Source: Thermoanaerobaculia bacterium (GTDB taxonomy: Bacteria; Acidobacteriota; Thermoanaerobaculia; UBA5066). Taken from it: a stretch of DNA of 59,983 bases. This document shows positions 3,137 to 59,983 of this stretch, piece by piece. Positions within the stretch are counted from its first letter, which is position 1, and each line of letters opens with the position of its first letter. The notes below the pieces were generated by a model. The model saw only the letters and a list, made by a program, of their open reading frames with translations, did not search any database and was not told the origin of the DNA. Where the stretch lies: contig DASVJU010000202.1 of NCBI GenBank assembly GCA_036385755.1, forward strand, positions 1 to 59,983, read 5' to 3'. The position numbers were made by a program, and so were the translations under genes.

Positions 3137-4183
3137 TCAGCGCTTCGGCTCGGGCGCCGGTGCCGGCACCGCGGCGGCCGGAAGGGGCGCCTTGCCGAGC
3201 AGGAAGTTCACCATCTCGTTTACGTTCATCGTGGAGACGTTCGAACCCGGGACGATGAGGATCTTCTTCTGCGCGAACTGCCGCGCGACCTGCATCTTCA
3301 CGTACGCGTCGCCGCCGAGCTTGGAGAGCGCCTCGGCCTCCTTGCGGACGCCTTCGGCCTCCGCCTGAGCGACCGCGATCGTGGCCTTGGCCTGGTTCGT
3401 CTTCGTCTGGTAGTAGCCGTCCGCCTCGTTCCGGATGCGCCCGGCCTCGCCGAGAGCGTCCTCGAGGCGCTTGTTCCACTCGGAGCGCTTCCCTTCCAGC
3501 TCGCTCTGCTTCTGGACTGCCATGTTCTTCTGCTGCTCGATGAGCGTCTGGACGTCCGCCTCGGCCTGTTTCTGGGCGTTGATGGCGTCCTGGTACTCCT
3601 TGTCGAACCGGTGCTGCTGGACCTGGAGCTGGTCGATGAAGACCCCGAACGGAGCGAGCTCCTTCGAGAGCTGGTCCTTCGCGCTCGCGGCCATGCGGTT
3701 CTTCACCGTGACCTGGTAGTACTCCTCGCTCGTGATCTCGTTGAACACGTCCCGGATGATGGAGCGCGAGATCGGCCGGACGAGGCGCTCCTTGATCTCG
3801 AGCGCCGACTGTCCGATGTGCGAGATGAGGTAGTCCGCCTTCTTGGGGTCGATGCGCCACATGACGTTCACGTCGATGTAGACGTTGTTGCCGTCCTTCG
3901 TCTTGAACGTGATGTCGTCGCGGCCCAGCCGGTCGCCCTCGCTCGCGTTCGCGGTCATGAAGAGGTTCTGCTGCGAAATCGGGAGCGTGGCCCAGCTGTT
4001 GATGACGGGCAGGAAGAAGTAGACGCCGCCGGGCGGGTAGACCTCCTGCGTCCCGCGCTTTTCGAAGAACCAGACGAGGCGCGTGCGGACGCCGACTTCC
4101 GTCGAGGTCGTCGCCCCGCAGCCCGAGAGCGTGAAGGCGAGCACGAGCGCCGCCCCCGCGCGGAGAGACCGGGCGCGCGTCAC
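3137..4183 (-). CDS. SPFH/Band-7 domain lipoprotein (HflC-like)
   Basis: 348 aa. Lipobox LAFTLSGC, then an SPFH core (DDITFKTKDGNNVYIDVNVMWRI...) and a Q/A/E-rich coiled coil. The GTG start overlaps the upstream stop (GTGA, 4180-4183). Confidence 0.85.
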   Translation of the reverse strand: MTRARSLRAGAALVLAFTLSGCGATTSTEVGVRTRLVWFFEKRGTQEVYPPGGVYFFLPVINSWATLPISQQNLFMTANASEGDRLGRDDITFKTKDGNNVYIDVNVMWRIDPKKADYLISHIGQSALEIKERLVRPISRSIIRDVFNEITSEEYYQVTVKNRMAASAKDQLSKELAPFGVFIDQLQVQQHRFDKEYQDAINAQKQAEADVQTLIEQQKNMAVQKQSELEGKRSEWNKRLEDALGEAGRIRNEADGYYQTKTNQAKATIAVAQAEAEGVRKEAEALSKLGGDAYVKMQVARQFAQKKILIVPGSNVSTMNVNEMVNFLLGKAPLPAAAVPAPAPEPKR

Positions 4184-25118: not shown

Positions 25119-25894
25119 CGACGCCCGCGGCAGCGCTGCCCGGGCCGCCGACCGTTTCGGACATCCTCGAGCGGCGCGCAGAGGGCGGGCGCGCCCCGCG
25201 TGGCCTGACGGCGGCCGTTTCCGTCCTCGCGCACGCGGGCTTCCTTGCGTTTCTTCTCCTCGTGGGCCGCCCCCGGAAGGCGCCCGTGTTCGTGCCGATG
25301 TCCCTTCCCGTCCGCGTCGTGAGCCCGGCCTCTCTGGGCCGGCCCGAGGCGGCGCCCGCCCCCGCGCCGGTGGCGGCGCCCGCGGAACCGCTGCCCGCAC
25401 CGAAGGCGAAGCCCGTCATCGAGAAGCCCTCGGAGAAGATCCTTCCGTCGGCCAAGGCGATGCCCGAAGCGAAGAAACCCGCGAAGGCGGAAAAGGCGAA
25501 GCCGGCGGCCGCCGCGGTCAAGCCTTCCGGGCCCGCTCTGGAGCTTCCGAGCGCCGGCGCCGCGAACGGCGCCATGTCGGGCGCCGGCATCTCCTTCGGA
25601 GCGTCGGTCACGTCCTTCGACGCCGACTTCCCTTTCGCCTATTACGTCGAACAGCTCCTCTCCCTCATCGGCGCGAACTGGTTCAAGCCGGAGTCGGCCG
25701 AAGGCACGAACTGCGTCGTCTCTTTTCGCGTCCTGCGCTCCGGACAGGTGACGGACGTCAAGGTCGATTCCACGTCGGGCGTGAGCTACTACGACCGGGC
25801 CGCGGCGCGTGCCGTGTACGCCGCGAACCCGCTGCCGCCCTTGCCGCCTGACTACCGCAACGATTCGCTCGGCGTACACCTGAAATTCCAGTGA
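25115..25894 (+). CDS. TolA-like energy transducer with a TonB-C-type C-terminal domain
   Basis: 259 aa. TTG start (TTGA overlap), N-terminal TM, P/A/K-rich linker, and a TonB_C-like end (YYVEQLLSLIGANWFKP...AANPLPPLP). Occupies the TolA slot in the cluster. Confidence 0.75.
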   Translation: MTTPAAALPGPPTVSDILERRAEGGRAPRGLTAAVSVLAHAGFLAFLLLVGRPRKAPVFVPMSLPVRVVSPASLGRPEAAPAPAPVAAPAEPLPAPKAKPVIEKPSEKILPSAKAMPEAKKPAKAEKAKPAAAAVKPSGPALELPSAGAANGAMSGAGISFGASVTSFDADFPFAYYVEQLLSLIGANWFKPESAEGTNCVVSFRVLRSGQVTDVKVDSTSGVSYYDRAAARAVYAANPLPPLPPDYRNDSLGVHLKFQ

Positions 25895-27351
25895 AGGGGA
25901 ACTCCTTGCAAGAAGAAACAGAAGAAGAAAAGAAGATTTCTTTGAAGGGAAAAGGAAGAGAAGAGAAGAACTGCTTCAGGGGAAGCGTCGCGCTTCTGGC
26001 TGCCGCTGCCCTCCTCCGGGTCGCCCCGGTTCTCGGGCAGACGCCGAGGCCCGTGACTCCCCTGTCGCCACCCTCCACCGCGACCGCTCCCTCCGGATTC
26101 CAACAGGCCTCCAACATCGACCTTTCCATCACGGGCAGCTCCAATGCGCGCCGCCCGCTCGCGATCCCGGTGACGATCGCGCCGCTCCTGCCGGAGCTCC
26201 AGACGAAGGCCGTCGATCCGTTCTACACGACCCTGGCCGACGACCTCGCGGGCTCGGGTGTCTTCGTCGTGGCCGATCCGGCGCTCTACCCGAAGGGGAT
26301 GCGCCCGCCGCAGAACCGCGAAGAGGGTGACATGTGGAAAGCCACGTCGGCCCAGTTCCTTCTCGATACGCGGCTGTCGCCGGAGGGCGGGAACGTGGTC
26401 GTCGAGGCGTCTCTGTGGGACCTCGGCACGCTGAAGTCCATCCTGAGCAAGAAATACACCGGCGAGCCCCGTGCGGCGCGCCGCATCGCCCACACCCTGG
26501 CGAGCGACCTCGTGCGCCAGTTCACCGGCAAGCCCGGCCCGTTCCTCACGAAGCTCGCCTTTTCCTCCGACCGCGACGAGCCGCGCGTGAAGGAGATCTA
26601 CACGATGGACTTCGACGGCGAGAGCCAGCGGCGGATCACATATTCCCGCACGCTGTCACTCGCTCCCGACTGGTCGCCGGACGGCACGAAGATCGTGTAT
26701 CAGTCCTACGAGAAGGACACGCCGGGGCTGTGGCTCATCGGAAAGGACGGGACCGAAAAGCGGCCCATTCCCGTTCCGACCCAGCTCAACGCATCTCCGT
26801 CGTTCTCACCGGACGGCAGGACGGTTGCGTTCTGCGGCAGCGTCCGGGGCAACACGGAGATCTTCACCGTCCAGACGGACGGTTCCTCTCTGAAACGCCT
26901 CACCGAAAACGCGGCGATCGACTCGACGCCCCGCTGGTCCCCGAACGGCCGCGAGCTCGCGTTCACGTCCAACCGCCAAGGCACGCCCCAGATCTTCATG
27001 ATGGACCTCGAAGGCGCGAATGTGAGGCGCGTGACGCTGGCGGGCAACTGGAACGACGAGGCCGCGTTCTCGCCCGACGGCGGGCGCCTGGCGTTCGCCT
27101 GCCGGAACGAGGGCGATTTCCAGATCTGCGTGATGGATCTCCTTTCAGGCCGGACCGTGCAGATTTCGAGCGGGTCCGGCGCCCACGAAGGACCAACGTG
27201 GTCCCCCGACGGCACGAAGATCGCCTGGGAGGTGCAGCACGGCAGCTCGACCCAGATCGCCATCGGGAACGCCGACGGCAGTGGAACGGCGCGTATCGTG
27301 ACGTCTTCCGGGAACAATTATTCCCCCTCGTGGATCAAGACGCTAGAATAG
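25891..27351 (+). CDS. tolB: Tol-Pal system beta-propeller protein TolB
   Basis: 486 aa. WD40-like PD40 repeats (SPDGTKIVY, SPDGRTVAF, SPNGRELAF, SPDGGRLAF, SPDGTKIAW). GTG 25891 (GTGA overlap). The first ~27 codons are a repeat copy. An alternative TTG start lies at 25942. Confidence 0.9.
   Translation: MKGNSLQEETEEEKKISLKGKGREEKNCFRGSVALLAAAALLRVAPVLGQTPRPVTPLSPPSTATAPSGFQQASNIDLSITGSSNARRPLAIPVTIAPLLPELQTKAVDPFYTTLADDLAGSGVFVVADPALYPKGMRPPQNREEGDMWKATSAQFLLDTRLSPEGGNVVVEASLWDLGTLKSILSKKYTGEPRAARRIAHTLASDLVRQFTGKPGPFLTKLAFSSDRDEPRVKEIYTMDFDGESQRRITYSRTLSLAPDWSPDGTKIVYQSYEKDTPGLWLIGKDGTEKRPIPVPTQLNASPSFSPDGRTVAFCGSVRGNTEIFTVQTDGSSLKRLTENAAIDSTPRWSPNGRELAFTSNRQGTPQIFMMDLEGANVRRVTLAGNWNDEAAFSPDGGRLAFACRNEGDFQICVMDLLSGRTVQISSGSGAHEGPTWSPDGTKIAWEVQHGSSTQIAIGNADGSGTARIVTSSGNNYSPSWIKTLE
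25894..25970 (+). repeat. GA-arm / TTTC-N3-GAAA element, solo copy forming the first codons of tolB
   Basis: ...CAAGAAGAAACAGAAGAAGAAAAGAAGATTTCTTTGAAGGGAAAAGGAAGAGAAGAGAAGAA. The 18-mer GAAGATTTCTTTGAAGGG (25932-25949) is identical to the reverse complement of 36197-36214. Confidence 0.8.
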
Positions 27352-28890: not shown

Positions 28891-29160
28891 ATGGCCAACA
28901 CCAAGCAAGCGAAGAAGCGCGCCGCGCAGAGCGATCGCCGGCGCGTCCGCAACCGCTCCGTCGTGACGAAGGTCCGCAACGTCGTGAAGAACCTGCGCAA
29001 GACGGCGGAGACCGAGGCCGCGAAAGTCGGCGCCCTCCTGTCGAACGCGGTCTCCGACCTCGACGTCGCCGTCCGCAAGGGCGTCCTCCACAGGAAGACG
29101 GCCTCCCGCCTGAAGTCGCGGATCTCGAAGACCGTGAACAAGGCGCAGAAGGCGAAGTGA
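28891..29160 (+). CDS. rpsT: 30S ribosomal protein S20
   Basis: 89 aa. MANTKQAKKRAAQSDRRRVRNRS... is the typical S20 N-terminus. Confidence 0.95.
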   Translation: MANTKQAKKRAAQSDRRRVRNRSVVTKVRNVVKNLRKTAETEAAKVGALLSNAVSDLDVAVRKGVLHRKTASRLKSRISKTVNKAQKAK

Positions 29161-29167
29161 GGTCCGG

Positions 29168-29791
29168 CTAGAACCCTTCCAGGATCGTCGTGACGAGGTT
29201 CTGGGCGAACGGGCGGGCCATGGCGTCGATGGCCTCCCGTTCGCGGTCGTAATACGAGCTCGCGCTCGACGGCACGGTATAGGGCTGCCGGAACAGGTAC
29301 GCGGGCTCCGCGAAGATCGGCTTGTCCGTCGCCTTCTCCGTGAGGACGAGTTTTCCCGTCACGGTCACCTGGTACTCGACCGCGATTCCGTTCGCATCGA
29401 AGCGCACGGGCGCGACGTTGCAGGACGTCAGATGCCCGGCAAGCTCCGCGTCCGCCGCCGACCGGTCGGAAACCGGCTTCAGGCGGCCGCGCGCTGACAG
29501 CTCGCGGATGACGGCGTCCGTGAGGCGCTGCTCGAGTCCGACGACCGTGGTGTCGTTGATGAACTGCGCCACGTAAACGGTCTTCACGGTCGCGGGGAGC
29601 GCGCTCGACCCTGTTCCCACCAGGGTGTACCCGCAACCGAAGAAACCGAAGACGAGAGAGAGACAAGAGGAGAAGAGAGAGATTTCTTTGAAAGGGAAAG
29701 AGTCACGGGCGCGGCACGGGCGCTTCGGCGCGGCGGCCGCTTGCCCGCGCCCGTTCGAAGAAATTCCCTTGTCCGAAATCTCTCTTCTCAC
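29168..29791 (-). CDS. lptE: LptE-like LPS-assembly lipoprotein (start uncertain)
   Basis: Lies immediately downstream of leuS, which is conserved leuS-lptE synteny. Lipobox-like FFGC followed by GYTL. About 155 aa mature size. The only in-frame start after the leuS stop is GTG 29791 (GTGA overlap), which gives an unusually long 52-aa pre-Cys leader encoded entirely by a repeat element. Confidence 0.55.
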
Positions 29792-29797
29792 TTCGCC
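29641..29797. repeat. complete inverted-pair element spanning the leuS stop and lptE start
   Basis: Plus arm 29641-29704 (GA arm plus GATTTCTTTGAAAGGGAAAGAG), a 49-nt GC-rich interior, and minus arm 29754-29797 (reverse complement GAAGTGAGAAGAGAGATTTCGGACAAGGGAATTTCTTCGAA). Confidence 0.8.
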
Positions 29798-32358
29798 ACG
29801 ATGTTCAGCAACCGATCCTGGACCCAGATGATCTTGACGCGTTGCTTGCCCTCGAGCCACTTCGCGATGACCGGATTCGCTTCCGCGGCCGACAATGCTT
29901 CTTTCTCATCCGCGCCTCTTCGAAGCTTGATCTCGGCCCGAACCTTCCCGGATACCTGCACGGCGATGGAGGCGACTTCCATCTCGGCGAGAGCCGGGTC
30001 ATACGCGGGCCAGCCCGAAACGAGGAGGCTCTTCTTGCCGCCCATCCTCTCGTTCAGCTCCTCCGAGAGGTGAGGCGCGATGGGATGGAGAAGCGTGACG
30101 AGCGTCCGAAGTGACGTCGCGGTCTCCCCCGGGTCCGCGCCCGCATCGCCGACGAGAGTCGTCGCATGGTTGAGGAACTCCATGAGGTGCGCCACGGCGG
30201 TGTGGAACGAGAACGCCCGGAAGTCCTCCGTGACCCTCTTCACGGCCATGTGGCGCGCGCGCGCCGCGGGCGTGTCGGCCGCCCCAGGCTGTCCCTGCGG
30301 ATCGGCGCCCGTCTGAAGGAACCGGTCGACCGTGGAGCGAACCCGCCAGAGGAAACGCTCGGGGCCGCTGATCCCCTCGTCGCTCCACTCGGCGTCCTTC
30401 TCCGGCGGTCCGAGGAAGAGCACGAACGCGCGGACGGCGTCGGCGCCCTTCTCGGCGATGAGCGGATCGAGGGATACGGCGTTGCCGCGCGACTTGGACA
30501 TCTTCTCGATGCGCCCGGTCGGAGACTGGCGGGTGATCATCCCCTGGTTGAAGAGCGCGGAGAACGGCTCCTCGAACGGCACGAGGCCGAGGTCCTTCAG
30601 GATTCGCGCGAAGAAGCGCGCGTACAGGAGATGGAGGATGGCGTGCTCGATCCCGCCGATATACTGGTCGACGGGTGTCCACTCTTTCGCGATCGCGGCG
30701 TCGAAGGGCGCCCGATCGTTCTTCGGGTCGACGTACCTCAGGTAGTACCAGGACGAGTCCACGAAGGTGTCCATCGTGTCCGTCTCGCGGCGCGCGGGGC
30801 CGGCGCACCTGGGGCACGTCGTGTTCACGAACGAGGCGACCTTCTCGAGGGGATTTCCGCCCTTGCCCGTGAACGGCGCGTCGGGAGGCAGGACGACGGG
30901 CAGGTCCTTCTCGGGCACCGGCACCCAGCCGTCCTTCTCGCAGTGGATCATCGGGATCGGCGTTCCCCAGTAGCGCTGGCGCGAGATCAGCCAGTCGCGG
31001 AGCCGGTACCGGATGCGCGGCCCGCCGATCCCGCGGCGGGCGGCCTCGGCTGAAATGAGTTCGCGGGCAGAGGAAGAAGATTCTGCTGAGAATGGGCCAG
31101 AGGCGACGAGGTTGCCTTCGCCCGTATATGCGGCCGACGGAGCACCGGCAATGCCAGGAGCGCCGCCCTGCCCCTCATCCCTTCTAAGAAAATCCGCGGT
31201 TTCCTCTTCTTCCTCTTTCCGAAGCAAATCCTTCTTCTCTTCTTCGATGACCTTGACGATCGGAATCCCGTACTTCTTCGCGAAGTCGAAATCGCGTGTG
31301 TCATGCGCGGGCACTGCCATGAGCGCGCCCGTGCCGTAATCGGCGATGACAAAGTTCGCGAGCCATACGGGCACTTCCCGACCGGTGAAGGGATTGATCG
31401 CCTTGCGGCCGGTGTCGCGGCCGTCCTTCTCGGCGCCCTCGGCCTCACGCACGATCCGCTCCTGGCTGCGGACGGACGCGACCCATGCCTCGAGTTCGGC
31501 CCTCTTCGGGTTCCCCTCGAGGAGGCGCGGGACGAGCGCATGCTCGGGGGCGAGGATGAGCGCCGTCGCGCCGAAGACGGTGTCCGGACGCGTCGTGAAC
31601 ACGCGCACCGTTTCCCCGAGCGACGGGATCGCGAAGTCGAGATCGGCGCCCGTGGACTTGCCGATCCAGTTGCGCTGCATCGTGACGACCTTGTCGGGCC
31701 ACTTGCCGAGCGTGTCGAGGCCTTCCAGCAGCCGCTCTGCATAGTCGGTGATCTTCAGGAACCATTGCTCCAGCTCGCGTGGGACCACGGGTGTGTTGCA
31801 GCGTTCGCAGACGCCCCCCTCGGCCTGCTCGTTCGCGAGCACGGTGAGGCACGAGGGGCACCAGTTGACCGCCGATTTCTTCCGGACGGCGAGGCCCTTC
31901 TCGAGGAGCCTGAGGAAGAACCACTGGTTCCAGCGGTAGTACTCGGGTTCGCAGGTCGTGACTTCCTTCGTCCAGTCGTAGAGGACGCCCCACGAGCGGA
32001 ATTGCTCCTTCATGGCCGCGATGTTCGCGAGCGTGGACGTGCGGGGATGGATTCCCTTCTGGATCGCGTAGTTCTCGGCGGGAAGGCCGAACGCGTCCCA
32101 GCCCATTGGGCAGAACACGGTCACGCCGGTCTGCCGGAGGAAGCGGTGGAGCGCGTCGGTCAGGAAGTAGGTCCGGGCGTGCCCCACGTGCAGGCGGTCG
32201 CCCGACGGGTACGGGAGCATGACGAGGAGGTACGTGCCTTCGCCCGCGGGCTTCTCGGTATCCACGAAGGCGGCCCGATCCGCTTCCCAGCGCTCGCGCC
32301 ACTTGGCCTCTATCCGGAGGATTTCGTCGCTCTTCGTCGTCGGCGTCACACTGCTCAT
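29788..32358 (-). CDS. leuS: leucine--tRNA ligase
   Basis: 856 aa. HVGHARTY (HIGH), KMSKSRGN (KMSKS), [18 protein letters not shown]. Confidence 0.95.
31068..31245. repeat. inward-facing pair of element arms inside leuS
   Basis: Plus arm 31068-31096 (GCAGAGGAAGAAGATTCTGCTGAGAATGGG). Minus arm 31171-31245 carries two cores (reverse complement GGATTTGCTTCGGAAAGAGG and GGATTTTCTTAGAAGGGATGAGGGG). Confidence 0.7.
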
Positions 32359-35319: not shown

Positions 35320-36267
35320 TCAGTTCTTCAGGAACAGCGCCAGGCGCCTTGCCGCGGCGGGAGAAATGCGTTCTTTCGCCGTGAGGACGGCCGACGCGAG
35401 AGCGTCCGCGCAATCGCTCGGTCGATCGGGATCGAGATGCCGCACGGCATTCGCGAGGACGCGATTCGCGGTGCTCGCATTCTGCCTGAGGACGGCGAGG
35501 ACGGCCTCCACCGACACCGCGGCCTCCTCCTCGTGCCAGCAGTCATAGTCGGTGACGAGGGCCATGGAGGCGTAGCCGATTCCGGCCTCCCGGCAGAGCT
35601 TCGCTTCGGTGGCGTTCGTCATGCCGATCACATCGGCGCCCCACGAGCGGTAGAGGGACGACTCGGCCTTGGTGGAGAACTGCGGCCCCTCCATGCAGAC
35701 GTACGTCCCGCCCCGGTGGCACACGGCGCCCTCGGCTTTCGCGGCCGAAGCGAGCGCATCGAGGAGGACGGCCGAGACCGGGTGCGCGAACGAGACGTGC
35801 CCCACGCAACCGCCGCCGAAGAACGTCGAGACGCGGTGCTTCGCGAGGTCGATGAACTGGTCCGGAAGGACGATGTCGGTCGGCTTGTACGCCTCCTTCA
35901 TCGAGCCGCAGGCCGAAGCCGAGAGCAGCCATGAACAACCGAGTTTCCGGAAGCCCCAGATGTTCGCGCGGTAGTTCACCTCGGTGGGGAGGAACGAGTG
36001 GTGGCGCCCGTGCCGCGCGAGAAACGCGACGGGGACCGAAGAAAGAGTTCCGAGAAGGTAGGAGTCGGAGGGAGCGCCGAAGGGAGTGCGAAGCGCGACC
36101 TCGTCCGTGATCTTCAGTCCGGGAAGCGAATACAGGCCCGATCCACCGACGAGACCAATGCGACGGAGAAGCGAAGAAGTAGATTTCTTACTCTTACCCT
36201 TCAAAGAAATCTTCGTCTTCTCTTTCGCTCTTTCGTTTCTCCTCCGAGCAAGTTCTTCTTTCTTCAT
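35320..36267 (-). CDS. mtnP: S-methyl-5'-thioadenosine phosphorylase (PNP/MTAP family)
   Basis: Track ORF 35320..37179 trimmed to ATG 36267 (ATGA overlap). The conserved core starts at IGLVGGSGLY. Also GVCHRGGTYVCMEGPQFST and MTNATEAKLCREAG. The first ~36 codons are a repeat copy. An alternative TTG start lies at 36204. Confidence 0.85.
   Translation of the reverse strand: MKKEELARRRNERAKEKTKISLKGKSKKSTSSLLRRIGLVGGSGLYSLPGLKITDEVALRTPFGAPSDSYLLGTLSSVPVAFLARHGRHHSFLPTEVNYRANIWGFRKLGCSWLLSASACGSMKEAYKPTDIVLPDQFIDLAKHRVSTFFGGGCVGHVSFAHPVSAVLLDALASAAKAEGAVCHRGGTYVCMEGPQFSTKAESSLYRSWGADVIGMTNATEAKLCREAGIGYASMALVTDYDCWHEEEAAVSVEAVLAVLRQNASTANRVLANAVRHLDPDRPSDCADALASAVLTAKERISPAAARRLALFLKN
36165..36267. 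repeat. compact palindromic element forming the first ~34 codons of the MTAP gene
   Basis: The minus strand reads ATGAAGAAAGAAG...GAGAAGACGAAGATTTCTT-TGAAGGGTAAGAG-TAAGAAATCTACTTCTTCGCTTCTC. The two arms are self-complementary with a ~14-nt loop. Confidence 0.8.
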
Positions 36268-37822: not shown

Positions 37823-38803
37823 ATGAAGAAGACGATGCTCGCCCTGACGATGATCCTCCTCGCAGCGGGCCTGGCCGCCGCCGCCGATTCGAAAACGAAC
37901 GTCTTCGCACAGGAAGAGGGCTTCGTCGACGCGCACGGCGTCCTCGTCTACTGGAAGTCGATCGGGCGGGGCGCGCCCCTCTTCGTCGTGCATGGCGGTC
38001 CCGGCGCCTCGCACGACTACTTCCTCCCCCACCTCCTCCCGCTCGCGCGCACGAACCGGCTCGTCTTCATCGACGAGAGGGGATCGGGCCGGTCCGAGCG
38101 CCTTGAGGACCCGAAGCTCTACACCGTCGCCGCCATGGTCGAGGACATGGAAGCCGTCCGGAAGGCGCTCGGCCTCGGGAAGGTGAACCTCCTCGGCCAT
38201 TCGTTCGGCGGGGTCCTGGCGCAGGCGTACGCCTTCACGTACCCGCAGAACCTCTCGACCCTGATCCTTTGTTCGACGTTCCACACGACGAAGGCGATCA
38301 ACAAGGCCCTCGCCGACATGAAGGCCGCGATGGCCCCGGAGCTTCGCGCTCGGATCGATAAAATGGAGAAAGAGGGCCTCTACGGGAAGGGCCTGCCGTG
38401 GCAATGGGGCCGGTACCCGGACGAATACATGAAGGCCGCGTGGGCGGAGGGCTACTTCCCCTACCTTTACCAAAGCCGGCCCGACGCGAACTACGACCCG
38501 GCCCCTGGCCCCAACATGGGATGGGAGGTCTATCGCGAGATGTGGGGCTCCACGGGCGAGTACGTCGTGGACGGAAACCTCACCGGCCTCGACTACGCCG
38601 AGCAACTGAGAACAGTTCGCGTTCCGACTCTTGTGACCGTCGGCGATCACGACGAGAGCGCGCCTTGGATCGCCGGGGAGATGGCGAAGCTCGTGCCCGG
38701 CGCGACGCTCGTCGTCTTCCCGAAGAGCGGCCACATGACGTTCGTCGACCAGCCGGCGCTGTTCCGCAAGGTGGTCGACGATTTCGTTCACGGGCGGAAG
38801 TAG
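37823..38803 (+). CDS. secreted alpha/beta hydrolase (proline iminopeptidase-like)
   Basis: Trimmed to ATG 37823 ([16 protein letters not shown]... signal peptide). HGGPG oxyanion motif and nucleophile elbow GHSFGG. 326 aa. Confidence 0.8.
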
Positions 38804-38862
38804 CCGCGCGTCCCGCCGCCGGTTGCCGCGCGCGGAGCGACCGCGTAACCTCCGCGGCTCAC

Positions 38863-41823
38863 ATGAGCGGACGCGACTGGAAATCCACTCTCCTCCTCCC
38901 GAAGACGGAGTTCCCCATGCGGGCGGACCTCCCGAAGCGGGAGCCCGCACGCCTCGCGCGCTGGCGGGACGAAGACCTCTACGGCCGCATCCGCGCCGCG
39001 CGCAAAGGCGCCCCCCGATTCCTCCTGCACGACGGGCCGCCCTACGCGAACGGCCGGATCCACATGGGGACGGCGATGAACAAGATCCTCAAGGATCTCG
39101 TCGTCCGCAGCAAGACGCTGGCCGGTTTCGATGCGCCTTACGTGCCGGGGTGGGACTGTCACGGCCTGCCCATCGAACTCAAGGTCGACAAGGAGCTGGG
39201 GCCGAAACGGCGCGAGATGACGGACGTCTCGTTCCGGGACGCCTGCCGCGCCTACGCCGAGAAGTGGATCGACGTCCAGCGGACCGACTTCATGCGCCTC
39301 GGCGTCCTCGGGGCGTGGCAGGCGCCGTACCGGACGATGGACTTCTCTTACCAGTCCGAAATCGCCCGCGCGTTCGGCCAGTTCGTGGAGAACGGCCTCG
39401 TCTCTTTCGGTTTCAAGGCCGTCCTCTGGTGCGTCCACGACCGCACGGCTCTCGCCGAGGCGGAGATCGAGTACGAGGACAAGACGGACTGGTCGATCTA
39501 CGTGGCGATGCCGATAAGAGTGGACGACGCGGCGCAATCCGTCTGGGATCCGGCGCCTCTTGGGATCGATTCGATCTATGCCGTGATCTGGACGACTACG
39601 CCGTGGACCTTGCCCGCGAATCGGGCGATTTCCCTCGGGGCGAACATCGAATACATTCTTCTTAGAAAGGAAGAGGGAGCGCGAGACGCGTATCTGGTCG
39701 CCGAAGCGCTGGTGCCGCAGGTGACGGCCGCGCTCGGCTGGACGCGCGCCATCCCCCTTCCCCTTTCTAGGAAAAGCGGCCGTGACATCGCCAACAGGCT
39801 GCTGAAACTGCGCTACGCCCGCCCCTTCGCGTCCGACCCATTCGACAATTTTGGTTTCCTTCTCGGCGAGCACGTCTCGACTTCGGACGGCACCGGTCTC
39901 GTTCACACGGCTCCCGGCCATGGCCGCGACGATTACGAGGTTGTGAGGCGCGCCGGATTCAAGGTCGACGACCCGGCCCTCTGCCCGGTGGACGAGGGCG
40001 GGTACTACGACGCGAACGCTCCCGAGCAACTTCGCGGGAAGCGCGTCGTGACGCCGAAGACGCCGGGAGACGACGCGAGTGGGGCGGTTCTCGAGGCGTT
40101 GAAAGCTGGAGACGCTTCGGGCGCTCTTCTCCTCCATTCGCAGAAATCTCCTCATTCGTATCCCCATTGCTGGCGCTGCAAGAACCCGGTCATCTTCCGG
40201 GCGACGCACCAGTGGTTCATCGACCTCGGAGCCCTGCGCGATCGCGCGATGGCGGAGATCCGAGGCCGCGTCGCGTGGATCCCGTCCTACAGCGAGAACC
40301 GCATCGGCGCGATGGTCGACAACCGCCTCGAGTGGACGATCTCCCGGCAACGCCGCTGGGGCTCGCCGATCACGTTCCTGCGCTGCGTCGACTGCAAGGA
40401 GAAGGGCGTCGTGAGCCACTTCCCCAGAGTCGAGGGGAACGTGGGAGAAAAGGAGAAGAGAGAAAGAGAGGATTTCTTTGAAAGGGTAAGAGAGGCTTTC
40501 CGTGAACACGGAGCGAACGCCTGGTACGACGATGCTTTCCCCCCGTCTTACTTTCTAAGCAAATCTTCCTCTTCTTCTTCCTCTCCAGCCTCCTGTTCTT
40601 CCTGCGGCGGAACGAACTTCGAGAAGCTGAAGGACATCCTGGACGTGTGGTTCGACTCCGGCGTTTCGCACGCGGCGGTCCTCCGCTCCGGCGACTACGG
40701 CCTCGCGGATCCTTACACGGCGCAGCCGCCCGTCCCGGTCATGTACCTCGAGGGCCACGACCAGCACCGCGGATGGTTTCAGTCCTCGCTCCTCACGTCC
40801 GTCGCGCTGACCGGCCGAGCGCCGTACGACACCGTCCTGACCCATGGTTTCGTCGTCGCGGGCGACGGCCACAAAATGTCGAAGTCCCTCGGCAATACGA
40901 TCGAGCCGCAGGACCTCCTCAAGACCGACGGCGCGGACGTGATCCGCCTCTGGGTCGCCTCGCTCGACTACACGAACGACGACCCGCTTTCGAAGGAGAT
41001 CCTCCAGCGCACCGCCGAGGCCTACCGGAAGATCCGGAACACGGCACGCTTCCTCCTGTCGAACCTCTTCGATTTCGACCCGGCAACGGATGCCGTGCCG
41101 GAAGCAAGGCTCGAACCGCTCGACCGCTGGGTGCTCGACGCCGCCGCGCGCTTCGCGGTCGAGGCTCGGGACGCATACGCGCGCTACGAGTTCCACGCCG
41201 TCGCGCGCCGGCTGCTCGACCTCGTCACGACCGATCTCTCGGCGTTCTGGTGTGATGCGCGCAAGGACGCTTTCTACGTCCTCGCGGCGAACGATCCCGT
41301 GCGCCGGTCGGCGCAGACGGCGGCCTGGAGGCTCGTCGAGACGATCGCGATCGCGCTCTCCCCGATCTGCCCATTTACGGCGGAAGAGATATGGGAATCG
41401 ATACCGGGGCATGCGACGGACCCCTCTTCGCTGGTCCTGAAGAGCTGGGACGAACTCAAGGTTCCGGGGATTTCTTCGAATGAGAAAGAGGCTTGGGGCC
41501 ACGTCCTCGCTCTTCGAGCGGAATTTCTGCAGGCCCTCGAGCCGCTGCGCCGCGACGGGTCGGTGGGCTCCGCCGCGCAAGCTGAGGCAGTGGTCGGACG
41601 CGCCGTCGGGCTCGACGAGGCGCTCCGGACTCTTTCCCTTTCAGAAGAAAAACTCGCCGAGGTGCTCGCCGTACCGTCCGTCATGCGGGATGTCGGCGCC
41701 GACGGAATTCTCGTCCGCCCCGCCGAAGGCGCGAAGTGCCCGCGGTGCTGGCAGGTCCGCAAGGACGTGGAACCCGGAGACGACGGCCTCTGCGCGCGCT
41801 GCCGCGCGGTCGTCGGCGAGTAG
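38863..41823 (+). CDS. ileS: isoleucine--tRNA ligase (type 1)
   Basis: Track ORF trimmed to ATG 38863 ([21 protein letters not shown]...). [11 protein letters not shown] (HIGH-type), [17 protein letters not shown], and a C-terminal zinc knuckle CPRCW...CARC. 986 aa. Confidence 0.95.
39649..39776. repeat. inward-facing pair in ileS (pair 1)
   Basis: Plus core ATTCTTCTTAGAAAGGAAGAGGGAG (39655-39679). Minus core at 39751-39776 (reverse complement GCTTTTCCTAGAAAGGGGAAGGGGGAT). 70-nt GC-rich interior. Confidence 0.65.
40444..40586. repeat. inward-facing pair in ileS (pair 2)
   Basis: Plus arm GGAGAAAAGGAGAAGAGAGAAAGAGAGGATTTCTTTGAAAGGGTAAGAGAGG (the 16-mer at 40471-40486 is identical to 29681-29696). 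Minus arm 40546-40586 (reverse complement GGAGAGGAAGAAGAAGAGGAAGATTTGCTTAGAAAGTAAGAC). About 50-nt interior. Confidence 0.8.
41468..41655. repeat. inward-facing pair in ileS (pair 3, more diverged)
   Basis: Plus core GGATTTCTTCGAATGAGAAAGAGG (41468-41491). Minus core 41630-41655 (reverse complement GAGTTTTTCTTCTGAAAGGGAAAGAG). 138-nt interior. Confidence 0.5.
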
Positions 41824-58841: not shown

Positions 58842-59983
58842 ATGGCCCTCGAGGAATATCGCCGGAAGCGCCGCTTCGACGTGACGAAGGAGCCCGCCGG
58901 CGCGAAGACACCGGCGAAGCGCCGAGCGTCGCGCCGGGCTCTCGCCTATGTCGTCCAGAAGCACAGGGCGACGGCCCTCCACTACGACTTCCGGCTCGAA
59001 TGGAACGGGGTGCTTCTCTCGTGGGCGATTCCCAAGGGCCCGTCGCTCGATCCGGCCGTCAAGCGCATGGCCTCCCACGTCGAGGACCATCCGCTGGAGT
59101 ACGCGCCCTTCGAAGGAATCATCCCGGCCGGTGAATACGGTGGCGGCACGGTGATGGTCTGGGACCGCGGCACGTGGACGCCCGAGACACCCGACGTGGA
59201 TGCGGCGCTCGCGAAAGGCGATCTCAAGTTCACTCTTCAGGGCGAGAAGCTCAAGGGGTCGTGGGTCCTCGTCCGCACGAAAGGCTGGGGCTCGTCGAAG
59301 AAGCCGTCCTGGCTCCTCATCAAGCATCGCGACGCCTTCGCGTCCGACGAGGACGTCGCGGAGTCGCGCCCGCGGTCCGCCGTCTCGAACCGCCTCCTGA
59401 CGGAGATCGCGCTCGACGAGGGCGGCGACGTCGAGAAAGCCTCGACGGGCGATCCGGTCGGCGAGGTGGAGAAGCTTCTCGCTGACCCGAAAAGGCTCCA
59501 GCGAAAACAGAACGCGATTCCCGCGGTCTGGCACTCCAAGGTTCGAAAAGCAGGGTCCGAAGAGCACCAAGAAAATATTGCTTCGAAAGGTAAGAGGGGC
59601 GCCGCGGTGGCACCGCAGAAGCCGGGTCGGTCGCCGCGCGGCGCAGCCGAAGCCCAGCCCCTTTCTAAGAAATCTCCGTCTTCCTCTTTTCCCGTCCCCG
59701 TCTCTAATCCGAGCAAAATCTTCTGGCCCGAAGAGGGCTGGACGAAGAGCGACCTCATCGCCTTCTATGCGGGGGTGTTTCCCAGGCTGAAGCCGTACGT
59801 CGACAACCGGCCGCTTTCTCTGGAGCGCGCGCCCGACGGAATCCTCGGCGAGCCTTTCTACCAGAAGGAGAAGCCCGCTTCGATGCCGCGGGACACGCCG
59901 ACCGTGGCGGTGCGGCACGGCAAGGACCGGAAGGTCACGAACACCGTGGTCGGAGGAAAGCTCGAGACGCAGCTCGCCCTCGC
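58842..59983 (+). CDS. ligD: DNA ligase D fragment: 3'-phosphoesterase domain, linker, then the start of the polymerase/primase domain; runs off the right edge
   Basis: Not in the ORF track because it is edge-truncated. Manual translation from ATG 58842 gives MALEEYRRKRRFDVTKEP...VVQKHRATALHYDFRLE...LLSWAIPKGPSLDP...HVEDHPLEYAPFEGIIPAGEYGGGTVMVWDRGTW (PE domain). Later comes VSNPSKIFWPEEGWTKSDLIAFYAGVFPRLKPYVDNRPLSLERAPDG, which is a LigD Pol-type N-terminus. Confidence 0.85.
   Translation, partial: MALEEYRRKRRFDVTKEPAGAKTPAKRRASRRALAYVVQKHRATALHYDFRLEWNGVLLSWAIPKGPSLDPAVKRMASHVEDHPLEYAPFEGIIPAGEYGGGTVMVWDRGTWTPETPDVDAALAKGDLKFTLQGEKLKGSWVLVRTKGWGSSKKPSWLLIKHRDAFASDEDVAESRPRSAVSNRLLTEIALDEGGDVEKASTGDPVGEVEKLLADPKRLQRKQNAIPAVWHSKVRKAGSEEHQENIASKGKRGAAVAPQKPGRSPRGAAEAQPLSKKSPSSSFPVPVSNPSKIFWPEEGWTKSDLIAFYAGVFPRLKPYVDNRPLSLERAPDGILGEPFYQKEKPASMPRDTPTVAVRHGKDRKVTNTVVGGKLETQLAL
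59557..59693. repeat. inward-facing pair in the ligD interdomain linker
   Basis: Plus arm CCGAAGAGCACCAAGAAAATATTGCTTCGAAAGGTAAGAGGGG (59557-59599). Minus arm 59658-59693 (reverse complement GGGAAAAGAGGAAGACGGAGATTTCTTAGAAAGGGG). 58-nt GC-rich interior. Confidence 0.75.

Follow-up and report, generated by a model that had tools for sequence, protein, structure and literature searches.

The leuS-lptE junction and the element behind it

The stretch of 59,983 nucleotides (nt) analysed here, referred to as the window, derives from the genome of an uncultured member of the Thermoanaerobaculia (Acidobacteriota). Its minus strand carries leuS followed by lptE, and directly behind the overlapping stop and start codons of the two genes lies a palindromic repeat element of ~140 nt, which reaches into the region encoding the LptE signal peptide. 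A previous sequence-only reading of this DNA had described a complete repeat element at 29641-29797 that supplies the leuS stop codon, the lptE start codon and the signal peptide of LptE. We compared the junction with related loci and with other copies of the repeat. The features of the junction are listed below (aa, amino acids).

32358..29788, minus strand: leuS, 856 aa, with the Pfam domain tRNA-synt_1, editing and anticodon-binding domains and the C-terminus ...LLNIVAK-TGA
29790..29788, minus strand: leuS stop codon TGA, ancestral and outside the element, as judged from the same AAG-TGA end in element-free outgroups
29791..29789, minus strand: GTG start of lptE, which shares GTGA with the leuS stop and is in frame with the Cys codon; ancestral by the same comparison, and the probable site of termination-reinitiation
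about 29648-29787, minus strand: whole element, ~140 nt, directly 3' of GTGA, with bounds from ortholog and paralog comparison
29750..29787, minus strand: proximal purine-rich arm, in lptE sense GAAGAGAGATTTCGGACAAGGGAATTTCTTCGAACGGG, encoding leader residues ~2-14 and containing the inverted repeats I1, I2 and I3 (nhmmer and ortholog alignments)
29703..29749, minus strand: GC-rich centre with an inner stem-loop, encoding the basic part of the n-region and containing the inverted repeat I5, ACGGGCGCGG/CCGCGCCCGT (RNA and DNA folds)
29648..29702, minus strand: distal CT-rich arm, in lptE sense CTCTTTCCCTTTCAAAGAAATC and then the CT tail, encoding SFPFKE (the end of the n-region) and most of the h-region
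29633..29647, minus strand: end of the signal peptide, GFFG, and lipobox Cys (ggtttcttcggt tgc), probably ancestral; it aligns with ggtctcgccggc TGC in outgroups and ggtcttctcggc TGC in close relatives
29168..29632, minus strand: mature LptE (GYTLVG...ILEGF) and its stop codon (PF04390 match, homologs, codon-position entropy)

The open reading frame (ORF) downstream of leuS is LptE, as had been proposed. It matches PF04390 with E=5.7e-16 and 59.7 bits against a cut-off of 23, over residues 92-225 of the maximal ORF, and 180 homologs were found. The lipobox Cys is encoded by TGC at 29635..29633 and is, together with the following Gly and Tyr (C53-G54-Y55), invariant in 22 homologs. The positions previously given for the leuS TGA and the overlapping GTG are correct. 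Moreover, a codon scan bore out that no canonical start other than this GTG precedes the Cys: there is no in-frame ATG, GTG or TTG between 29791..29789 and the Cys codon, and the sole further candidate, the GTG at 29860, lies inside leuS. The leader from the overlapping GTG comprises 52 aa, with the Cys at position 53. Neither promoter-like nor terminator-like sites were found in a scan of 29100-30300, so that there is no sign of the element supplying a promoter or a terminator. The window contains no tRNA or tmRNA genes, and an Rfam scan of the whole window at the gathering threshold gave no family match.

At ≤3 mismatches, the window contains four occurrences of the repeat core, AGATTTCTTTGAAAGGGAAA, compared with 0.00 expected; the match in the distal arm of the lptE copy lies at 29680-29699. 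The lptE element is predicted to fold as one long hairpin (RNA, -76.1 kcal/mol, z=-3.7, with 0 of 200 shuffled sequences folding as well; DNA, z=-3.4). Its terminal inverted arms are GAAGAG.AAGATTCTTCGA.TGG and CC.TTCAAAGAAATCTTCCTCTTC, and with ~140 nt it is too small to encode a transposase. In the family, a purine-rich tail of ~25-30 nt leads into GATT(T)CTTCGA(A/G)NGG; the centre is GC-rich and ~40-60 nt long, and behind it CCNTTC(A/T)AAGAAATC runs into a CT-rich tail that is ~25-30 nt or longer. The centre blocks GGTCGCGGGCGG and GCCGCGC are common to the lptE element and its paralogs. We also considered two separate arms flanking an ancestral centre at lptE. This was rejected because of the sub-terminal blocks TGGTCGCGGGCGG and GCGC...CTCTT.CC.TTC, which the lptE element has in common with the copies in leuS and in a LigD-like gene.

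Overlap, leader and hairpin in related genomes

A degenerate-pattern scan of species-representative genomes yielded 49 syntenic leuS-lptE loci from uncultured Thermoanaerobaculia, Holophagales or other Acidobacteriota, and in each of them the positions of the leuS stop and of the codon for the LptE Cys were determined. Seven further loci were added by a metagenome scan, including the deletion intermediate L052 and two additional in-frame long forms. In nearly all of the 49 loci leuS lies immediately upstream of lptE, and the GTG overlapping the stop as GTGA has a conserved position. Element-free outgroups are represented by ~25 loci from Holophagales and Thermoanaerobaculia metagenome-assembled genomes (MAGs), with LptE 52-62% identical; the repeat is absent from the lptE junction in all of them. 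Their leuS ends in ...GTGGTGAAG TGA, i.e. in the same AAG-TGA, and the gap between stop and Cys is 44-59 nt, mostly 47 nt. The only sensible lptE start in these loci is the GTG of the GTGA overlap, which gives a leader of 14-21 aa, typically 17 (e.g. V-RRRAALAALLAAGLAG-C).

Since the outgroups share AAG-TGA/GTG without carrying the element, this comparison indicates that the stop and the start are ancestral and that the element landed immediately 3' of GTGA. By this evidence the overlap of the leuS TGA and the lptE GTG predates the element, and the view that the repeat supplies the one or the other codon had to be given up. That view, in which the element carries both codons like a mycobacterial interspersed repetitive unit (MIRU), has some appeal in this genome, where the purine arm can be extended by complementarity across AAGTGAG (I1) and where two other copies in the window directly follow a 4-nt stop/start overlap, caGTGA at tolB and agATGA at a phosphorylase gene. 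However, the complementarity of the lptE arms is good only to about the TGA; over AAGTGAG the outer 8 positions of I1 match at 5/8, which is ordinary for purine-rich sequence. The two codons are thus not part of the element as had been stated, and the repeat, although real, dispersed and palindromic, is narrower than 29641-29797, namely ~29648-29787 according to its orthologs and paralogs. In addition, the C-terminus of LeuRS (..LLNIVAK) is full length without the element, and outgroups lacking it likewise have the TGA upstream of tolB and start that gene from a separate Shine-Dalgarno sequence and ATG. Given the identical AAG-TGA/GTG at the same position in ~25 outgroup loci, we regard repeat-supplied codons as very improbable.

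To judge whether the leader is translated, 16 element-bearing junctions are available, 14 from genomes (including the window) and two from metagenome contigs. The gaps between stop and Cys in 14 of them are 131, 134, 140, 143, 146, 152, 158, 161 or 167 nt, all 2 mod 3, which places the GTG of GTGA, in spite of numerous indels, in frame with the Cys (binomial P=1.2e-5; for distinct lengths, 9/11, P=1.4e-3). The two out-of-frame junctions are L003, with 148 nt, and L008, which measures 238 nt and contains an additional unrelated insertion. In-frame GTG or ATG starts are present inside both. The entropies at the three codon positions are 0.82/0.63/0.77 in the element, compared with 0.34/0.21/0.80 in mature LptE from the same genomes. 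As far as these alignments tell, the frame through the element is selected, while the peptide sequence is hardly constrained, as expected of a passenger sequence that is tolerated within a leader to be cleaved off. On this evidence, translation of the 52-aa leader is probable. In the relative L007 the PGAP protein P0001 ('LptE family protein', 209 aa) starts at the same GTG.

An untranslated spacer would also explain why the leader amino acids are free of coding-type constraint, why a lipoprotein leader would have the unusual length of 52 aa, and why the gene caller chose the 150-aa protein P0019. LptE would then start at a non-canonical codon near the hydrophobic core (e.g. the ATC at KE-I-SLF) or, without a signal, at the GTG after the Cys. 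Yet the frame from GTG to Cys is kept across nine distinct lengths, and neither the ATC nor the ATT codons have a Shine-Dalgarno-like sequence in front of them. A start behind the Cys would delete the lipidation site, although Cys-Gly-Tyr is invariant in the 22 homologs, and relatives with short junctions use the same GTG of GTGA for leaders of 14-18 aa. We consider such a spacer improbable and the start of P0019 almost certainly a mis-start. The protein P0029 from a relative represents the same truncated LptE call as P0019 (29168-29620, minus strand).

The leader shows the architecture of a signal peptide for signal peptidase II: the n-region is positive, the h-region is hydrophobic and uncharged, and Cys is the last residue of the lipobox. 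By hand calculation, the n-region in the window has a net charge of +5, the h-region comprises 16 aa with a mean hydropathy of 1.86, and Gly occupies position -1. Across all leaders of the element clade the n-region carries +1 to +8 and the h-region comprises 12-18 aa with a mean Kyte-Doolittle hydropathy of 1.8-3.0; the outgroups are similar. A Tat (twin-arginine translocation) signal was considered and rejected by eye only, as the leader begins with V-R-R but shows nothing else of the twin-arginine motif.

In lptE sense the distal arm reads CTCTTTCCCTTTCAAAGAAATC and then TCTCTCTTCTCCTCTTGTCTCTCTCTCGTCTTC, and its translation gives the end of the n-region and the core. Paralogous copies have the same CT tail of 25-30 nt or longer after AAGAAATC. 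Moreover, the h-region, which is of Ala/Leu composition with GC-rich codons in the outgroups, has switched to Phe/Leu/Ser (TTC, CTC, TCT) within the element clade. The earlier proposal that the hydrophobic core is the translated CT-rich arm hence appears largely right for the front, or most, of the core. It does not extend to GFFG before the Cys, which aligns with GGTCTCGCCGGC in the outgroups; these last 12 nt look ancestral rather than arm-derived.

In a neighbour-joining tree of the LeuRS C-terminus and mature LptE, the element-bearing loci are monophyletic and form two subclades, with long forms in both. The loci with short junctions (38-77 nt) occupy nested tip positions in this clade (L005, L006, L009, L010, L012, L013, L017, L019 and L029); they have the same GTG of GTGA and leaders of 14-18 aa. 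Most of them keep an arm footprint, FKEI(F/S)LF, e.g. VKPFKEILLFSFLLGLLGC, VKKEIFLFSSLLGLLGC and VRRTSGSFPFKEILLF.., and L052 has kept both outer ends of the element (AAATCAGAGAT|CTTC...) while the hairpin body is gone. The state of the junction varies even among close relatives, with 152 nt in the window and 134 nt in L001, and with 50 nt in L006, L050 and L051 at 97-98% LptE identity. The simplest history that the sequences suggest has a single old insertion, after which the hairpin was deleted independently at least six times. As close relatives differ in this way, the long n-region is dispensable, while the core derived from the CT arm persists. The dependence of LptE on the repeat, as originally proposed, does not concern initiation, because the GTG is ancestral. 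With regard to export, the evidence supports a dependence on the distal CT arm only.

The hairpin might be kept mainly for a role of the RNA, by sequestering the GUG, which would leave lptE translation to ribosomes coming from leuS, or by stabilising the mRNA, with translation through the hairpin being incidental. Such a role is compatible with an in-frame insertion that encodes the signal peptide, and several observations would suit it: the strong predicted hairpin with GUGA at its base, the blocks CTTCGA, GCCGCGC and TTCAAAGAAAT, which are invariant at all three codon positions among the lptE copies, and the retention of the element across a clade in which LptE is only ~71-76% identical. The stem is dispensable, however, as at least six lineages have lost the hairpin and kept the CT arm only, compensatory covariation is nearly absent, and the same element occurs inside protein loops, where a role of this kind does not apply. 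RNAalifold applied to 14 orthologous copies recovers the inner arm pairing only and cannot separate constraint at the RNA level from constraint at the DNA level. Overall, we find it unlikely that an RNA role is the main reason for keeping the hairpin.

Other insertions were also seen in LptE leaders. The outgroup locus L044 (Holophagales MAG, 3882-4012) has an unrelated GC-rich, in-frame expansion of the leader by 84 nt and a gap of 131 nt, and judging by this expansion the n-region of the LptE signal peptide seems generally tolerant to insertion. In L004, L008 and the proteins P0010, P0022 and P0033 other extra leader sequence encodes M(R)RRLLMQPP... and RALDTG.PRA. Several LptE leaders share this sequence, which may represent a second repeat family or a product of rearrangement.

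Dispersed copies in other reading frames

A profile built from the orthologous lptE copies was used with nhmmer to find matches on both strands of the window and in related genomes. Every copy in the 60-kb window lies inside an ORF, none between genes. Besides the lptE element, the window contains the following copies.

40113-40165, 40439-40604, 41468-41519 and 41614-41650, plus strand: copies inside ileS (38398..41823), found with nhmmer
31132-31219, minus strand: copy in leuS, found with nhmmer, an in-frame insertion in a loop of the LeuRS editing domain (region 31080-31250)
36151-36234 (region 36151-36267), minus strand: copy in the N-terminal extension of a PNP_UDP_1 gene (MTA/purine phosphorylase-like)
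59565-59693, plus strand: full arm-centre-arm copy in frame in a LigD-like gene (..ENIASKGKRGAAV..AQPLSKKSPSSS..KIFWPEEGWTKSDL..)
25921-25954 (region 25891-25990), plus strand: single arm at the 5' end of tolB

The IleRS of 1141 aa is encoded by an open frame with several repeat arms in frame. The copy at 40439-40604 was tried as a clean model of a complete element and rejected, as its centre of 12 residues aligns with native IleRS in solved structures. A pair of independent arms on either side of native sequence, or a copy that has been rearranged around it, describes this locus better, and repeat arms may insert or persist separately. At the LeuRS loop most outgroups have only EVIR-RPEG-ADASIAC, and L006 lacks the insertion, while other relatives have a longer arm-centre-arm version (..EDFLRREEG..ARDHSKKSPS..). 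The outgroup L036 has a similar insertion in this loop, and the repeat family may therefore extend beyond the clade. The PNP_UDP_1 gene starts at an ATGA overlap with its upstream gene. Its N-terminal extension of 35 aa (MKKEELARRRNERAKEKTKISLKGKSKKSTSS..) consists of two adjacent repeat arms with no GC-rich centre, and residue 36 is the first to be covered by the Pfam match. The LigD-like ORF stays open across its copy, which occupies an apparent linker between domains, and runs off the end of the window.

At tolB the single arm follows the TGA (caGTGA) of the TonB_2/TolA-like gene upstream and precedes the core of the TolB signal peptide, ..EEEKKISLKGKGREEKNCFRG-SVALLAAAALL... It is found in the nearer subclade only, in the same frame in 7 of 8 such junctions. 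Relatives without the element have a normal spacer with GGAGG and then ATG, and two relatives have TAA instead of TGA upstream of tolB. Instead of the overlapping GTG, the TTG behind AAGGGGAA may be the true start of tolB.

The copies in tolB, leuS and lptE are polymorphic for presence and absence at orthologous sites. Read with the purine arm first, the window copies use two frames only, ATT|TCT (lptE, tolB and phosphorylase) and GAT|TTC (ileS and leuS). The third frame, TTT-CTT-TGA, contains a stop in copies with the TTTGAAAGG core. The use of only two frames, with a stop in the third, fits selection that filters intragenic copies by frame.

Proposed origin of the LptE leader and comparison with known repeats

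We consider it likely that a palindrome resembling the Rickettsia palindromic elements (RPEs) in behaviour was inserted in frame behind the ancestral GTGA and now encodes most of the cleavable LptE signal. Before its arrival leuS and lptE would already have been an overlapping, translationally coupled pair sharing GUGA. [quoted passage not shown] A ribosome that ends leuS translation at UGA is assumed to reinitiate at the overlapping GUG, as in standard coupling, and would then read through the element to give a prolipoprotein with a 52-aa signal peptide. Its basic n-region would come from the purine arm and the centre, its h-region mostly from the CT arm, and its lipobox end would be ancestral. 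Lgt and LspA would remove all residues derived from the element at the lipobox Cys, leaving mature LptE unchanged; such complete cleavage of the leader would explain how an essential gene tolerates the insertion. Several sublineages would later have deleted the hairpin body, and the footprint of the CT arm (K-E-I-F-L-F...) would have stayed as a working h-region. Speculatively, an mRNA hairpin with GUGA at its base could tighten the dependence of lptE on leuS translation; the repeated loss of the stem argues that any such effect on coupling is not essential.

Several points weigh against this explanation. A typical lipoprotein leader has its Cys within ~15-35 residues and a lipobox with the consensus [LVI][ASTVI][GAS]C (PROSITE PS51257). 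The Cys at position 53 is far beyond the usual range, and the lipobox F-F-G-C, with Phe at -3 and -2, is atypical, which does not exclude its function. The automatically called gene in the window, P0019, encodes 150 aa and begins only behind the Cys, at a GTG. In the junction alignment, ~35 nt of ancestral n- and h-region were not identified and are either lost or drifted; as this sequence was not recognised, the right boundary of the element at 29648 is approximate, and the h-region could in part consist of ancestral sequence drifted to a CT-rich composition. Covariation in the hairpin is weak, with a compensatory change in 3 of 21 pairs. No target-site duplication is recognisable in the ortholog alignment at the lptE insertion, which is old, and no cognate autonomous insertion sequence was identified, for which no dedicated search was made; the case for mobility of the element is drawn from its dispersal and from presence/absence patterns. 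Finally, initiation at the GUG, coupling to leuS, and export and cleavage by Lgt/LspA are what we infer from the sequence.

More tentatively, at somewhat less than an even chance in our judgement, we propose that the CT arm was exapted as the core of the LptE signal, replacing an ancestral Ala/Leu core, and that it came from an undescribed RPE-like family residing in housekeeping ORFs of Thermoanaerobaculia. If true, this would be a documented case of selfish DNA turned into a working export signal. The junction suggests that signal peptides can recruit CT-rich repeat arms as their cores. The tempting reading that the repeat created the stop/start overlap is corrected by the comparison, and the junction instead offers a comparative example of an essential gene that appears to tolerate a selfish palindromic insertion in a part of the protein that is cleaved off. 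For annotation, leaders bearing the repeat cause systematic mis-starts of LptE, which here result in a protein of 150 aa without a lipobox.

In Proteobacteria the order leuS-lptE(rlpB) is found as well, and a 4-nt ATGA or GTGA overlap is a standard motif of translational coupling. The gene order in the window is the same and the overlap is ordinary; only the insertion behind the overlap is unusual. MIRUs are direct repeats, not palindromes, and the repeat's own ORF provides the overlaps with the flanking genes. The lptE element resembles them in its location at a gene junction of an operon with overlapping stop and start, which implies translational coupling. It differs in that the GTGA overlap at lptE predates the repeat, so that, in contrast to a MIRU, the repeat does not supply the stop and start.

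The element also resembles bacterial MITEs such as ERIC, Correia/NEMIS, RUP and BOX, which are small, non-autonomous and multi-copy, have terminal inverted repeats and occasionally fuse in frame with ORFs. It shares with them the terminal inverted repeats, the lack of transposase capacity and the presence/absence polymorphism. Unlike in these MITEs, all copies in the window lie within ORFs. At lptE, where the insertion is old, no target-site duplication was recognised.

The literature we covered, which was incomplete, contained no report of RPEs in signal peptides or of in-frame MITEs in Acidobacteria. RPEs are hairpin repeats of ~150 bp that are found in frame in unrelated housekeeping genes (PMC10969869). 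The lptE element is likened to them by description; a relationship in sequence is not expected, and we regard it as RPE-like in behaviour and do not claim it as a member of the RPE family. It is palindromic and hairpin-forming, falls in the range of ~100-150 bp, encodes no transposase and has many dispersed copies. As with RPEs, the Thermoanaerobaculia copies lie in frame in leuS, ileS, tolB, lptE, phosphorylase and LigD-like genes, whose ORFs remain intact. In contrast to RPEs, the host belongs to another phylum and is GC-rich, and its genome is not a reduced intracellular one. The arms are strongly asymmetric in purines and pyrimidines, each orientation uses two or more reading frames instead of one conserved peptide, and the lptE copy lies in a cleavable signal peptide and not in the mature protein. 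On this description, the phenomenon of in-frame palindromes in housekeeping genes would extend beyond Rickettsia to a free-living, GC-rich phylum.

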